From the NCBI RefSeq assembly GCF_003334765.1, contig NZ_QOWT01000024.1: a stretch of 59,926 bases of DNA, one strand, 5' to 3'. The translations under genes and the position numbers were made by a program. Under the pieces are notes generated by a model that saw only the letters and a program-made list of their open reading frames with translations, had not been told where the DNA came from and searched no databases. Shown in pieces: positions 21,717 through 52,319 of this stretch. The stretch comes from Escherichia coli. GTDB taxonomy: Bacteria > Pseudomonadota > Gammaproteobacteria > Enterobacterales > Enterobacteriaceae. Positions within the stretch are counted from its first letter, which is position 1. Each line of letters begins with the position of its first letter.

Positions 21717-23795
21717 TTAAATCAATGCCGATTTATCAATTCCCAGCCGCTTCATCCGTGACAGCAGGGTCGTGCGTTTCAGCCCCAGACGTTGCGCAGC
21801 GCCTTTAGGCCCGGCAACCACGCCGTTGGTTTCTTTCAGCACGCGCACAATCAACTGATATTCATCTTCGCCCTCCAGGGCGACAACCGTTGCGGCAGGC
21901 GGCGTTTCAGGTTCCGGTAAAACAATATCTGGCAATGACAGCTGCAGCACGTTACCGCGTGTTAGCAATACCGCGCGCTCAATGACGTTTTCCAGTTCGC
22001 GTACGTTACCCGGCCACTCCATGTTGCTCAAGGTGCGCAGCGTCTCGGCAGGAATGCTGTCGATATTGCGCCCCAGACGACGGGCAATTTTGAAGGTAAA
22101 GGCTTTCGCCAGCAGCGGAATATCTTCCGGACGCTCGCGTAGTGGCGGCAGGTGAATCGGGAATACGTTCAGGCGGTAATAGAGATCGCTACGGAACTCA
22201 CGGTCGGCGACCATTTTTTTCAGATCGCGGTTAGTCGCGGCGATTAGACGCACGTCCGTCTGAATGATTTTGTTGCTGCCGAGACGTTCAAACTCCTGTT
22301 CCTGCAATACACGCAGCAACTTCGGCTGTAACTCCAGTGGCATATCGCCCACTTCGTCGAGGAACAGGGAGCTTTTATCCGCCAGTTCAAAACGACCGAT
22401 ACGCTGGGCGCTGGCACCGGTAAAAGCCCCACGCTCATGACCAAACAGATCGCTTTCCAGCAATCCGGCAGGCATCGCCGCGCAGTTCATTTTGACCATG
22501 CGGCGATTATTACGCCCACTGAGATTATGGATCGCACGGGCAATCAGCTCTTTACCCGTGCCAGTTTCACCGAGGATCAGCACGGTACTGTCACTTTGCG
22601 CCACCATTTCAACTTGTTTAAGCACGCTGTACATGGCTTCGCTGCGGCCAATAATCTCGCCAAATTCACTATCAACATTGTTGAGCTGCTCGGTCAGGGC
22701 GAGGTTTTCATCAACCAGCCGTTCTTTCAGACGATGGATTTCCTGATAGGCGAGGGCGTTATCGACAGCGATTGCCACACGTTCGGCAATCTGGCGCAGT
22801 AAATTCAGATTGGTAGTGGTAAACACTTTCTCTTCGCATTGCGCCAGTTTCAGCACGCCCAGCATGGTGTCGCCAGACATCAGCGGTAACAGGCACAAGG
22901 TTTGAATCTGGTTGCCCCAGGTGTCGAACAACATGCGTTCATAGGGGGCTAAATCGTCCCGCTCGTGGAGATTGATCAGCAGCATCTCTTTACTTTTGAA
23001 CACGCGTTCGGTGAGGGTTCCGGCTTCATCGACTTCGCTCTGTTCGTGGGCGGGATGCTGTTTATCAAGATAGTGAGTGGAGTAGATGTTGAGTTTGTTT
23101 TTACGGTGGCTGCGTAAGACGATACTGATATCGTCAATGTCGAAATAGTAATGGATTTCTTTGGCGACTTCGCTGACCAGTTCGTCCATATCCAGGCGGG
23201 AAAGCACCGCGTTGGTGATGGCGACCAGGATGCGGAAGTTATCGCGTTCCCGGCATAACAACTCATAGTCGACATTGTTAACGACGCGGCTCTGGATTTG
23301 TTCGGTGACGACAGAAACGATCTGCGTAAATGTTTGCAGACGATTGAACTCTTTTTCGCTCCAGGGGCGATCGTCATAACGAATAAATTCACAGCCACCA
23401 AAAATATGCCCTTCCGCCGCCAGTGGCATCAGGCAATAGTGACCAAATTTTGGGTATAGCCCACCTGCGTCCAGCTGCGGCCAGGTTTCACAAAATTCTT
23501 CGTAACTGCAATGCAGCGTATCAGGGCGCGACAAAATGCTGCGTACCGGACCGTGTGCCAGAACAGTTTCGTCTTCATATTTAATGGGGGTGTCTTTTTC
23601 ACGCGACGCGTAATAAGACGCACGTTGAGTCTGCGCTTGCCACAACACAATAGCCGCGTTGTCGGCGAGCGCAGAACGCTTTACCAGTTGCGAAAGAGCC
23701 TCACACAGCGAGGCCAGATCGGGCTGCTGCAATAGTGTCCGAGTGATGTCGAACAACCCTTGTTGTCCGAGATCACTCATCGGTGTATATGACAT
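21717..23795 (-). CDS. fhlA: Formate hydrogenlyase transcriptional activator (sigma-54 dependent)
   Basis: ORF track 21717-23831; recognised N-terminus MSYTPMSDLGQQGLFD begins at the internal ATG at 23795, giving 692 aa; AAA+ sigma-54 activation domain with GETGTGKE and GAFTGA, C-terminal HTH. Confidence 0.95.
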   Translation of the reverse strand: MSYTPMSDLGQQGLFDITRTLLQQPDLASLCEALSQLVKRSALADNAAIVLWQAQTQRASYYASREKDTPIKYEDETVLAHGPVRSILSRPDTLHCSYEEFCETWPQLDAGGLYPKFGHYCLMPLAAEGHIFGGCEFIRYDDRPWSEKEFNRLQTFTQIVSVVTEQIQSRVVNNVDYELLCRERDNFRILVAITNAVLSRLDMDELVSEVAKEIHYYFDIDDISIVLRSHRKNKLNIYSTHYLDKQHPAHEQSEVDEAGTLTERVFKSKEMLLINLHERDDLAPYERMLFDTWGNQIQTLCLLPLMSGDTMLGVLKLAQCEEKVFTTTNLNLLRQIAERVAIAVDNALAYQEIHRLKERLVDENLALTEQLNNVDSEFGEIIGRSEAMYSVLKQVEMVAQSDSTVLILGETGTGKELIARAIHNLSGRNNRRMVKMNCAAMPAGLLESDLFGHERGAFTGASAQRIGRFELADKSSLFLDEVGDMPLELQPKLLRVLQEQEFERLGSNKIIQTDVRLIAATNRDLKKMVADREFRSDLYYRLNVFPIHLPPLRERPEDIPLLAKAFTFKIARRLGRNIDSIPAETLRTLSNMEWPGNVRELENVIERAVLLTRGNVLQLSLPDIVLPEPETPPAATVVALEGEDEYQLIVRVLKETNGVVAGPKGAAQRLGLKRTTLLSRMKRLGIDKSALI

Positions 23796-23868: not shown

Positions 23869-24879
23869 TTAGCATATACGCGGAAGCGGTTCGGCGTGTG
23901 GTAAATCGAGGGTTCGTTTCACGCCATACAGACCGGCAAGACGAACACCTTTACGTTCCACCACTTCACCAATCAGCGCCGCGTCTTTCCCCAGTGGATG
24001 GGAATGTAACGCTGCCAGCACTTGCTCTGCCGCGTTGCGTTCAACAGCTATTACTAGTTTGCCTTCGTTGGCAAAGTTCAGGGCGTCCAGTCCCAGCAAT
24101 TCGCAAACGCCACGCACGGCAGGTTTAACAGGCAGTGCCGCTTCTGAAAGTTCAATACCACAACCGCAGGCTGCCGCGAACTCATGAACCACCGCGTTTA
24201 CACCACCACGGGTGGCATCACGCAGCGCTTTCACGCCGGGAATGTCACGCAGCGTCTGAATAAGCGGCGTCAGCACCGCGCAGTCGCTGACCAGTTCGCC
24301 ATCCAGCCCCAGCTGCTCACGCAGGTTAAGGATAGTCGCCCCGTGGTCGCCGAGTGTACCGCTCACCAGCAATACATCGCCTGCGGTTAGCGTCTGTGCG
24401 CCCCAGTGAATATTCGCCGGAATTGCGCCCATGCCAGCGGTGTTGATAAACAGTTTATCTACCGCGCCGCGCTGCACCACTTTAGTATCGCCAGTAACGA
24501 TGGCAATGCCTGCCGCGCGGGCGGTTTCTGCCATGCTGGTCACTACGGCTTTCAGTGTCTCCATCGGCAATCCTTCTTCGAGGATAAAGCCACAGGAGAG
24601 ATAGCGCGGAATAGCGCCACTGACCGCAACGTCATTGGCTGTGCCGCAAATCGCCAGCTTGCCGATATTACCGCCAGGGAAGAACAGCGGGTCAATAACG
24701 TAACTGTCGGTGGAGAACGCCAGACGGTCGCCTTCCGCTACCAGCTGCGCCAGATCAAGACGTGCCTGATCTTCCTGCTCTGCCAGCCACGGGTTGGCAA
24801 AGGCTTCCATAAACAGGCTGTTGATTAATTGCTGCATCGCCTGGCCGCCGCTACCGTGGGCGAGTTGGATATTATTCAC
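23869..24879 (-). CDS. hypE: Hydrogenase maturation protein HypE
   Basis: 336 aa ORF ending in the C-terminal PRIC cysteine motif. Confidence 0.95.
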   Translation of the reverse strand: MNNIQLAHGSGGQAMQQLINSLFMEAFANPWLAEQEDQARLDLAQLVAEGDRLAFSTDSYVIDPLFFPGGNIGKLAICGTANDVAVSGAIPRYLSCGFILEEGLPMETLKAVVTSMAETARAAGIAIVTGDTKVVQRGAVDKLFINTAGMGAIPANIHWGAQTLTAGDVLLVSGTLGDHGATILNLREQLGLDGELVSDCAVLTPLIQTLRDIPGVKALRDATRGGVNAVVHEFAAACGCGIELSEAALPVKPAVRGVCELLGLDALNFANEGKLVIAVERNAAEQVLAALHSHPLGKDAALIGEVVERKGVRLAGLYGVKRTLDLPHAEPLPRIC

Positions 24880-27135: not shown

Positions 27136-27486
27136 TCACTCCTGGTCTATTTCTATCCGCCGAATCTGTAAACCGTCGTCTGCCACAATCTGCAGCATGT
27201 CACCATGACACTGTGGACAGCGGCGGACGCGCTGGGTCAGTAGCGTCACATACTGTTGGCATGTTTCACACCAGCATTCGGCCTCTTGTTCTTCGAGGTG
27301 CAGTTTACAACCTTCCGCCACGCTGCCGCGGCAAACCAGATCAAAACAAAAGGCAAGAGAGCTGGTTTCGACACAAGAAAATGCGCCAATTTTGAGCCAG
27401 ACCCCAGTTACGCGTTTTGCGCCGTGTTTTGCGGCCTGCTGTTCGATCAATTCCAGTGCCCGTTGGCAGAGGGTTATTTCGTGCAT
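27136..27486 (-). CDS. hypA: Hydrogenase nickel-insertion protein HypA
   Basis: ORF track extends to 27498; N-terminus MHEITLCQ begins at the internal ATG at 27486, giving 116 aa; zinc-binding CxxC pairs. Confidence 0.9.
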   Translation of the reverse strand: MHEITLCQRALELIEQQAAKHGAKRVTGVWLKIGAFSCVETSSLAFCFDLVCRGSVAEGCKLHLEEQEAECWCETCQQYVTLLTQRVRRCPQCHGDMLQIVADDGLQIRRIEIDQE

Positions 27487-27517
27487 ATCGCCTCCCATTA
27501 ACTATTGCCAGCTACAA

Positions 27518-27532
27518 GCAATAATTGTGCCA
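27518..27532 (-). promoter_or_regulatory. Sigma-54 (-24/-12) promoter of the hyp operon
   Basis: Plus strand GCAATAATTGTGCCA, reverse complement TGGCACAATTATTGC; about 30 bp upstream of hypA ATG on the minus strand. Confidence 0.7.
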
Positions 27533-27559
27533 GTGTTGATTATCCCTGCGGTGAATAAT

Positions 27560-27605
27560 GTCGATGATGTCGAAATGACACGTCGACACGGCGACGAAAT
27601 TCATC
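27560..27605. promoter_or_regulatory. Putative FhlA upstream activating sequence (hypA-hycA intergenic)
   Basis: TGTCGATGATGTCGAAATGACA ... CGACGAAATTCAT; the same motif recurs in the hycA-hycB intergenic region. Confidence 0.6.
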
Positions 27606-27645
27606 TTTAGCTTAAAAATCTCTTTAATAACAATAAATTAAAAGT

Positions 27646-27661
27646 TGGCACAAAAAATGCT
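27646..27661 (+). promoter_or_regulatory. Sigma-54 (-24/-12) promoter of the hyc operon
   Basis: TGGCAC-N6-TGCT, matching the TGGCAC-N5-TTGC class with correct GG to GC spacing; about 40 bp upstream of hycA ATG. Confidence 0.75.
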
Positions 27662-27697
27662 TAAAGCTGGCATCTCTGTTAAACGGGTAACCTGACA

Positions 27698-28159
27698 ATG
27701 ACTATTTGGGAAATAAGCGAGAAAGCCGATTACATCGCACAGCGGCATCGTCGCCTACAGGACCAGTGGCACATCTACTGCAATTCGCTGGTTCAGGGGA
27801 TCACGTTATCGAAAGCGCGCCTGCATCACGCCATGAGCTGCGCGCCGGACAAAGAACTCTGTTTCGTCCTTTTTGAACATTTTCGCATTTACGTCACCCT
27901 GGCGGATGGCTTTAACAGCCACACCATCGAGTATTACGTCGAAACAAAAGATGGCGAAGACAAACAGCGGATTGCGCAGGCGCAACTGAGCATTGACGGC
28001 ATGATTGATGGCAAGGTCAACATCCGCGATCGCGAACAGGTTCTGGAACACTATCTCGAAAAAATCGCTGGCGTTTACGACAGCTTATACACCGCTATTG
28101 AAAACAATGTGCCGGTGAATTTAAGCCAACTGGTAAAGGGACAAAGCCCGGCAGCATGA
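27698..28159 (+). CDS. hycA: Formate hydrogenlyase regulatory protein HycA
   Basis: 153 aa ORF, first gene of the hyc operon, divergent from hypA. Confidence 0.9.
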   Translation: MTIWEISEKADYIAQRHRRLQDQWHIYCNSLVQGITLSKARLHHAMSCAPDKELCFVLFEHFRIYVTLADGFNSHTIEYYVETKDGEDKQRIAQAQLSIDGMIDGKVNIRDREQVLEHYLEKIAGVYDSLYTAIENNVPVNLSQLVKGQSPAA

Positions 28160-28207
28160 GCTGAGGCTTTGCCCGTTTTGCAGGCGTTACGCCTGTTTGG
28201 GGATGGG

Positions 28208-28264
28208 CGTGTCGATGAGTGTCGAAAATGACATTTCATCGGCATGTTTTCGTCAAAAATGACA
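28208..28264. promoter_or_regulatory. Putative FhlA upstream activating sequence (hycA-hycB intergenic)
   Basis: GTGTCGATGAGTGTCGAAAATGACA ... TTCGTCAAAAATGACA, paralogous to 27560-27605. Confidence 0.6.
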
Positions 28265-28283
28265 ATCACCTGAGGAATGCCTG

Positions 28284-28895
28284 GTGAATCGTTTTGTAAT
28301 TGCTGACTCCACGCTCTGTATCGGCTGCCACACTTGTGAGGCCGCCTGTTCAGAGACGCATCGCCAGCACGGCCTGCAATCAATGCCGCGCCTGAGAGTG
28401 ATGCTGAATGAAAAAGAATCTGCGCCGCAGCTCTGTCACCACTGTGAAGATGCACCCTGCGCGGTGGTCTGCCCGGTTAACGCCATCACCCGCGTCGATG
28501 GGGCCGTGCAGTTGAATGAAAGCCTGTGCGTAAGCTGCAAGCTGTGCGGCATCGCCTGCCCGTTTGGCGCAATTGAATTTTCCGGCAGCCGTCCGCTGGA
28601 TATTCCGGCAAACGCCAATACCCCGAAAGCGCCACCGGCACCGCCTGCTCCGGCGCGTGTCAGCACATTGCTTGACTGGGTGCCAGGTATTCGCGCGATC
28701 GCCGTCAAATGTGACCTTTGTAGCTTTGATGAACAAGGTCCGGCCTGCGTGCGGATGTGCCCGACTAAAGCCCTGCATCTGGTGGATAACACCGATATCG
28801 CCCGCGTCAGCAAACGTAAGCGTGAGCTGACCTTTAACACGGACTTTGGCGATCTCACCTTGTTTCAGCAGGCTCAAAGTGGAGAGGCTAAATGA
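28284..28895 (+). CDS. hycB: Formate hydrogenlyase subunit 2 (4Fe-4S ferredoxin-type)
   Basis: 203 aa ORF with several CxxCxxCxxxCP clusters. Confidence 0.95.
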   Translation: MNRFVIADSTLCIGCHTCEAACSETHRQHGLQSMPRLRVMLNEKESAPQLCHHCEDAPCAVVCPVNAITRVDGAVQLNESLCVSCKLCGIACPFGAIEFSGSRPLDIPANANTPKAPPAPPAPARVSTLLDWVPGIRAIAVKCDLCSFDEQGPACVRMCPTKALHLVDNTDIARVSKRKRELTFNTDFGDLTLFQQAQSGEAK

Positions 28896-39879: not shown

Positions 39880-40027
39880 ACATTGTCATCACATGTCATC
39901 GTCACTAGTGTCGATGACATCGTTTTTCCTGCATTACAGAAATTAATTTCCTTAAATAACAGTAAATTAAAAACTGGCATGATTTGTGAATGTATCGGCG
40001 CATTAACTGTCATTGCTGGAGAATTTG

Positions 40028-50781: not shown

Positions 50782-52319
<1,538 letters not shown>

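Follow-up and report, generated by a model that had tools for sequence, protein, structure and literature searches.

The gene hycA, which encodes an antagonist of the formate-sensing sigma-54 activator FhlA, lies in Escherichia coli between two blocks of repeated sequence that very probably serve as FhlA enhancers, one acting at close range on the hydrogenase operon hyc and the other acting remotely on the divergent hydrogenase operon hyp, with autoregulation of FhlA as part of the same arrangement; we put the probability of this reading at roughly 85%. The sites themselves, the promoters, the significance of the repeats and their conservation are observed directly, in a stretch of 59,926 nucleotides that was analysed as a whole (the window) and in related genomes. 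Both the sites and the control of hyc and hyp by FhlA are already known textbook biology, and the analysis holds no new biology in that sense. What it brings out is that a fairly subtle layout, in which two sigma-54 promoters are combined with one near and one remote enhancer and with a feedback loop, is recoverable from raw sequence alone. To this it adds a comparative refinement: the enhancer in the hycA-hycB spacer is strongly conserved, and the element proposed as a second site between hypA and hycA is not.

Divergent sigma-54 promoters and a composite repeat around hycA

The 1.2 kb around the hycA sites is 100% identical to the corresponding region of E. coli K-12 MG1655 and was found in 5,426 of the 5,426 complete E. 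coli genomes searched. Gene coordinates were taken from the annotation of the identical MG1655 record, with the locus numbering shifted by +20299 to that of the window. On the minus strand, hypA, the first hyp gene (27136-27486), has a Shine-Dalgarno sequence, GGAGG, immediately upstream of it, and beyond hypA come hypB, hypC, hypD, hypE (23869-24879) and then fhlA (21717-23795), which lies directly 3' of hypE on the same strand. As the last gene downstream of hypABCDE, fhlA is the target of the feedback loop. In RefSeq/PGAP it carries the symbol of a flagellar export gene, 'flhA', together with the correct product name, 'formate hydrogenlyase transcriptional activator'. On the plus strand, hycA (27698-28159; identified from PF11046 and the annotation) lies between the two enhancer blocks, and hycB (28284-28895) has its Shine-Dalgarno sequence, GAGGA, and GTG start at 28272-28286.

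Sigma-54 promoters of the -24/-12 type stand back to back in the hypA-hycA spacer, CTGGCACAATTATTGCT for hypA (27517-27533, minus strand) and TTGGCACAAAAAATGCT for hycA (27645-27661, plus strand), both assigned from the sequence, from an RpoN matrix (PMC7658346) and from identity with ChIP-seq sites. The hypA element TGGCACAATTATTGC (27518-27532, minus strand) is the only perfect match to TGGCAC-N5-TTGC in the 60-kb window, and the hycA element TGGCACAAAAAATGCT (27646-27661, plus strand) has a single mismatch to it; over the window, the RpoN matrix places the hypA promoter first, the known norV promoter second and the hycA promoter third (15.4 bits). The -24/-12 letters of the two promoters are identical to those of OS27 (hycA) and OS28 (hypA), sigma-54 sites located by ChIP-seq (Bonocora et al. 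2015; PMC4591121), an identity that bears out the divergent elements proposed in the initial annotation, and the Salmonella orthologues of both promoters are also bound by sigma-54 (PMC3844500). Of the 50 loci in which the distance between the divergent -24 elements was measured, 43 have 114-115 bp and six have 102-103 bp, with variable non-motif sequence in between.

Two further features of this region were noted. The divergent promoters form a 27-nt inverted repeat (27506-27532 and 27646-27672; 81% complementary), which continues beyond the -12 elements into a common AGCTGGCA near the expected start sites; the extension is lost outside Escherichia. Within hycA, a sigma-54-like sequence, TGGCACATCTACTGCA (27767-27782, plus strand), is the fourth-best match to the RpoN matrix in the window (15.1 bits). 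It was considered as a target of either block and set aside, since the conserved residues W24-H-I-Y27-C28 mostly account for it; in about 17 of 81 loci the Cys is encoded by TGT, which breaks the GC of the -12 element, and the site looks largely like a by-product of coding. No separate ChIP-seq peak is listed for it, at a distance of only about 120 bp from the peak of the hycA promoter.

The predicted enhancer in the hypA-hycA spacer, block 1, reads TGTCGA-TGA-TGTCGAAATGACA-CG-TCGACA (27559-27588), with TGTCGAAATGACA at 27568-27580 and the outer inverted repeat TCGACA at 27583-27588. In the hycA-hycB spacer, the first part of the predicted block 2 reads TGTCGA-TGAG-TGTCGAAAATGACA-TTTCA-TCGGCA (28210-28244), with TGTCGAAAATGACA at 28220-28233 and the outer inverted repeat TCGGCA at 28239-28244. 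Through these outer repeats both blocks are the same nested imperfect palindrome. Block 2 contains a second site, TTTCGTCAAAAATGACA (28248-28264, with TTCGTCAAAAATGACA at 28249-28264), a direct repeat (D1) that lies 31 bp start-to-start from the first site and ends 8 bp ahead of the hycB ribosome-binding site; none of these sites is assigned a strand. All sequences quoted in the initial annotation were found at the positions that it gave, and the motif that it had seen recurring after hycA turned out to be part of a longer repeat, TGTCGATGATGTCGAAATGACA (27559-27580) corresponding to TGTCGATGAGTGTCGAAAATGACA (28210-28233). This composite, TGTCGA-N3/4-TGTCGAAA(A)TGACA, is present in two copies in 60 kb, one in each spacer flanking hycA. 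Searched as TGTCGAN{3,4}TGTCGAAAN{0,1}TGACA, a pattern that permits the two one-base spacing differences between the blocks, it gave two matches in the window, blocks 1 and 2, and none in 100 shuffles. The bracketed A of the original motif was apt as well, since some genera have the 13-bp and others the 14-bp form of TGTCGAAA(A)TGACA at the hycA-hycB site.

A 14-position FhlA matrix, built from 13 characterised sites with reference to Schlensog 1994 and Leonhartsberger 2000 (PMC7658346, Table 2), was run over both strands of the window (59,913 positions). Its best match is 28220-28233 in block 2 (17.9 bits), its second TGTCGATGATGTCG in block 1 (27559-27572; 16.4 bits) and its seventh the second site of block 2 (28251-28264; 12.1 bits); the 13-bp motif at 27568-27580 is outside the 14-bp register of the matrix, which the overlapping 27559-27572 fits. 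At 16 bits or more, two matches were observed against 0.063 expected, and none of 300 random windows (first-order Markov) had two, a test that is partly circular, the matrix probably including these very sites, and that mainly shows that the motifs coincide with the field's FhlA sites; conservation provides the independent test. A reconstruction of the matrix sites, intended to show block 2 among the 13, was abandoned on account of ambiguous column counts. The third-ranked match, TGTCGATGGTGTCA (51228-51241, plus strand; 15.1 bits), is inside the coding DNA of srlE, a gene of the sorbitol PTS operon, and is probably due to chance; a gSELEX RpoN peak has been reported near it, between srlB and srlD (PMC8743547).

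The idealised 16-bp FhlA consensus CATTTCGTACGAAATG, credited to Leonhartsberger et al. 2000 in PMC4987338, has no match with three or fewer mismatches anywhere in the window, and it is represented there by half-sites only (CGAAATG at 27571, CGAAATT at 27595 and CATTTCA at 28232); the 14-bp matrix and the half-sites were therefore used in its place. Among shorter words, six copies of the 9-mer TGTCGATGA were counted in the window (0.56 expected), half of them at the three FhlA-dependent enhancers and half in coding DNA, and the 8-mer TTTCGTCA is unenriched (5 observed, 2.4 expected).

Conservation across enterobacterial genera

A search with a HycA profile yielded 80 loci, which represent about 15 enterobacterial genera (Escherichia, Salmonella, Citrobacter, Enterobacter, Klebsiella, Raoultella, Kluyvera, Lelliottia, Kosakonia, Pseudocitrobacter, Pseudescherichia, Superficieibacter, Huaxiibacter, Intestinirhabdus and others), and the arrangement of hypA, divergent hycA and hycB is kept in all 80. 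Column conservation was averaged over 41 representative taxa, and invariance was scored on 72 distinct sequences. Mean column conservation is 0.85 for block 1 (27559-27585), 0.86 for the first part of block 2 (28209-28233) and 0.99 for its second site (28248-28263), in which every column reaches at least 0.9; the -24/-12 elements of the two promoters average 0.88. As a neutral comparison, fourfold-degenerate sites of hycB give 0.73 and the adjacent spacer 0.29-0.54, so that both blocks, at 0.85-0.99, exceed the fourfold-degenerate level. The alignment consensus of block 1 is TG.CGA...TG.CGAAATGACA.GTCG, and in the hycA-hycB spacer TG.CGA, TGTCGA and TCGTCA.AA.TGAC are invariant.

The hycA-hycB spacer, 124-146 bp where it is long, is reduced to 67-83 bp in most genera, and in its reduced form it keeps gTGTCGA-N3-gTGTCGAaa(+/-1)GACA, a variable linker, TTTCGTCAAAAATGAC and the ribosome-binding site of hycB. 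In most genera the first 48 bp past the hycA stop codon are either missing or impossible to align (mean column conservation 0.29). Judged from the aligned sequences, the hycA-hycB enhancer, and TTTCGTCAAAAATGAC above all, appears to be among the most conserved non-coding sequences of the locus across Enterobacteriaceae. Directly after the hycA stop codon, Escherichia, Salmonella, Citrobacter and Intestinirhabdus have an extra segment of 50-65 bp (28160-28208), which the other genera are without; it contains a hairpin (CAGGCGTTACGCCTG in E. coli), and its palindromes in Salmonella and Citrobacter differ from that of E. coli.

A different picture was obtained for CGACGAAATTCAT (27592-27604), which carries the 6/7 half-site CGAAATT and which the initial annotation had listed as a related element of the hypA-hycA spacer. 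Its status as a site is doubtful: the FhlA matrix gives nothing above 4 bits there, and its mean column conservation over the 41 taxa is 0.32, compared with 0.85-0.99 for the other elements. The element is retained only in Escherichia, Salmonella and some Citrobacter, and in the alignment it is not present in the C. freundii group, Enterobacter, Klebsiella, Kluyvera or Kosakonia. On score and conservation it is not supported as a second site in the spacer. The proposed weight-matrix search thus recovered blocks 1 and 2 and passed over this element, and the comparison of related operons divides in the same way, the main blocks being conserved across genera and CGACGAAATTCAT being lost in several of them.

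Probable pairing of blocks with promoters and alternative readings

Expression of hyc and hyp depends on FhlA and formate (PMC4591121, PMC3844500, PMC7658346, PMC11841067), and hypABCDE-fhlA is an FhlA-controlled, self-regulating operon (PMC7658346; PMC8743547); FhlA dependence and autoregulation, like the sigma-54 occupancy of the promoters, are taken here from the literature. Since hyp transcription ends with fhlA, formate-activated FhlA drives its own production, and the positive feedback loop drawn in the initial annotation is, given the position of fhlA after hypE and the literature on the self-regulated operon, established knowledge. The pairing of each block with a promoter, and the role of IHF, are what we infer from the layout together with earlier work reported on these operons.

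Block 1 precedes the hycA -24 element by about 57-87 bp and has, with respect to the hycA promoter, the canonical position of an enhancer, some 70-150 bp upstream of its target promoter; from the hypA -24 element it is separated by 26 bp. Between block 1 and the hycA promoter, sequence and alignment point to an AT-rich, IHF-like element (27628-27640; TAACAATAAATTA compared with WATCAANNNNTTR), which matches the IHF consensus and is kept across genera with the alignment consensus aAAtcAa....tTaAAa. Hopper et al. 1994 reportedly described it as an IHF site. FhlA bound at block 1, some 100 bp ahead of the hycA start, would be looped onto the sigma-54 polymerase at the hycA promoter with the aid of a bend at the IHF-like element, and block 1 would be too close to the hypA -24 element for an easy loop back onto that promoter.

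Block 2 is outside the canonical position. It lies about 550 bp downstream of the hycA promoter and 690-720 bp from the hypA promoter, and these two are its nearest candidate targets. Searched with TGGCAC-N5-TTGC and with the RpoN matrix, the stretch of about 4 kb that follows block 2 contains no sigma-54 site of high score, and for this reason block 2 must act at a distance. Sigma-54 enhancers are able to act from downstream or from kilobases away, as at rocG and glnA (PMC3844500), and the position of block 2 is consistent with a remote enhancer, although position alone does not prove the target. Over 50 loci, in which block 2 and the hyp promoter are 655-740 bp apart, helical phasing gave no signal (resultant length 0.2-0.4), a result that is neutral for the remote-enhancer reading. 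In the arrangement that we favour, block 2 (28210-28264) would serve the hyp promoter through a long DNA loop, and formate-activated FhlA would thereby boost its own synthesis, with the gene for its antagonist placed between the two enhancers. Published deletion work reportedly gave block 1 to hyc and block 2 to hyp, and the hycA-hycB site is said to have been assigned to the hyp promoter by Lutz et al. 1990 (Mol Microbiol 4:13) and by Schlensog, Lutz and Bock 1994 (J Biol Chem 269:19590); a search of the accessible full texts found no statement that this site is the hyp enhancer.

A division of labour less strict than this deserves consideration, even if we regard it as distinctly the less probable. 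Block 2 may not be specific to hyp and may also, or mainly, boost the hycA promoter from its position downstream, or an FhlA oligomer may bridge both blocks, with a loop of about 650 bp feeding both promoters. The nested-palindrome architecture that the two blocks have in common is compatible with such sharing, as is the capacity of sigma-54 enhancers to work from downstream or over kilobases (PMC3844500), and the near-constant spacing of the -24 elements (114-115 bp in 43 of 50 loci) suggests a co-ordinated unit. Against it stand the canonical placement that block 1 and the IHF-like site already have for hyc and the deletion work in which the blocks were reportedly allotted one to each operon.

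It is unlikely that block 2 couples the two operons, either through heavy hyc transcription that displaces FhlA and so throttles hyp-fhlA induction, or through bound FhlA or the hairpin attenuating read-through from hycA to hycB. If this were true, attenuation at block 2 would set the ratio of the HycA antagonist to the structural proteins; the one piece of evidence in favour of such coupling is the fold of the spacer RNA in E. coli. The same fold invites a related explanation, which we also consider unlikely, that the conservation of the hycA-hycB spacer reflects an RNA function in the hyc mRNA, such as an attenuator made of a hairpin and a U-tract or an element of hycB translation initiation. 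Block 2 is transcribed within the hyc mRNA, so part of its conservation could reflect a role there, and its second site stops 8 nt short of the hycB Shine-Dalgarno sequence. The E. coli spacer RNA folds at -54 kcal/mol (z = -4.9 against shuffles), and the palindromic repeats form a 15-bp hairpin (28209-28245) followed by GUUUUCGU (to 28255), which gives the region a terminator-like look; in a few lineages, moreover, the arms have changed in ways that preserve pairing, with double changes at four pairs. Across 72 sequences, however, the RNAalifold consensus reaches only -5.7 kcal/mol, with a covariation term of 0.1 and no compensatory pairs. In most genera the outer stem has pairs that are disrupted or missing, and the 3' arm is gone altogether in the Enterobacter and Lelliottia groups; the E. 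coli hairpin is 80% paired overall owing only to its invariant cores. Rfam gave no match for the spacer, and a terminator scan of it found nothing on the plus strand. Furthermore, block 1 has the same architecture in a position between divergent promoters that should not be transcribed, and the same motifs are found upstream of fdhF and hydN. A structured RNA or intrinsic terminator in the hycA-hycB spacer was rejected on the covariation result, and the conservation of sequence, as opposed to pairing, indicates recognition of the DNA by a protein.

Finally, the notion that the repeated motif is a chance likeness or a functionless relic of local duplication, to which the abundance of short A/T-rich palindromes in intergenic DNA and the three copies of TGTCGATGA in coding DNA of the window lend some colour, is opposed by the absence of the composite pattern from all 100 shuffles and of paired matches of at least 16 bits from all 300 random windows, and it is effectively refuted by the conservation data, in which the motifs are near-invariant over about 15 genera and the flanking spacer decays.

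Comparison with known FhlA and sigma-54 systems

The reading of blocks 1 and 2 as FhlA enhancers places them closest to the upstream activating sequences that Lutz et al. 1990, Schlensog, Lutz and Bock 1994, and Leonhartsberger et al. 2000 reportedly described for FhlA at the hyc and hyp operons of E. coli: organism, DNA and promoters are the same, and the matrix derived there peaks here. Nothing substantive is different; the element at 27592-27604, which is not conserved, may or may not equal a footprinted site.

Related repeats, TGTCGATGA and CGTCAAAACTGACG, are found upstream of other FhlA-dependent sigma-54 promoters, those of hydN and fdhF. The hydN promoter is within the window (39974-39990) and is preceded at 39883-39925 by TGTCAT and TGTCGATGACA repeats; the fdhF upstream region (NC_000913) has CGTCAAAACTGACG and TTTTTCGTCA repeats, and the second site of block 2 (28251-28264) is identical to CGTCAAAACTGACG at 12 of 14 positions. 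The best FhlA matrix score in the hydN enhancer region is just 6.2 bits, which means that the published matrix misses at least one accepted FhlA-dependent enhancer.

The FhlA enhancers of fdhF and hydN-hypF, which resemble the blocks described here, are clusters of TGTCG/CGTCA-type repeats located 60-130 bp upstream of a sigma-54 promoter. In those two systems the clusters are at the canonical distance from the promoter, whereas block 2 is about 700 bp from its presumed target and inside the transcription unit of another operon. For action over such a distance the likeness is with the downstream enhancer of Bacillus subtilis rocG and with relocated NtrC sites at glnA (PMC3844500), at which activators reach the sigma-54 polymerase through DNA loops of hundreds to thousands of base pairs. 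Those systems employ other activators and other motifs, and the hyc-hyp locus differs from them in that the remote enhancer is paired with a near enhancer for a divergent promoter.
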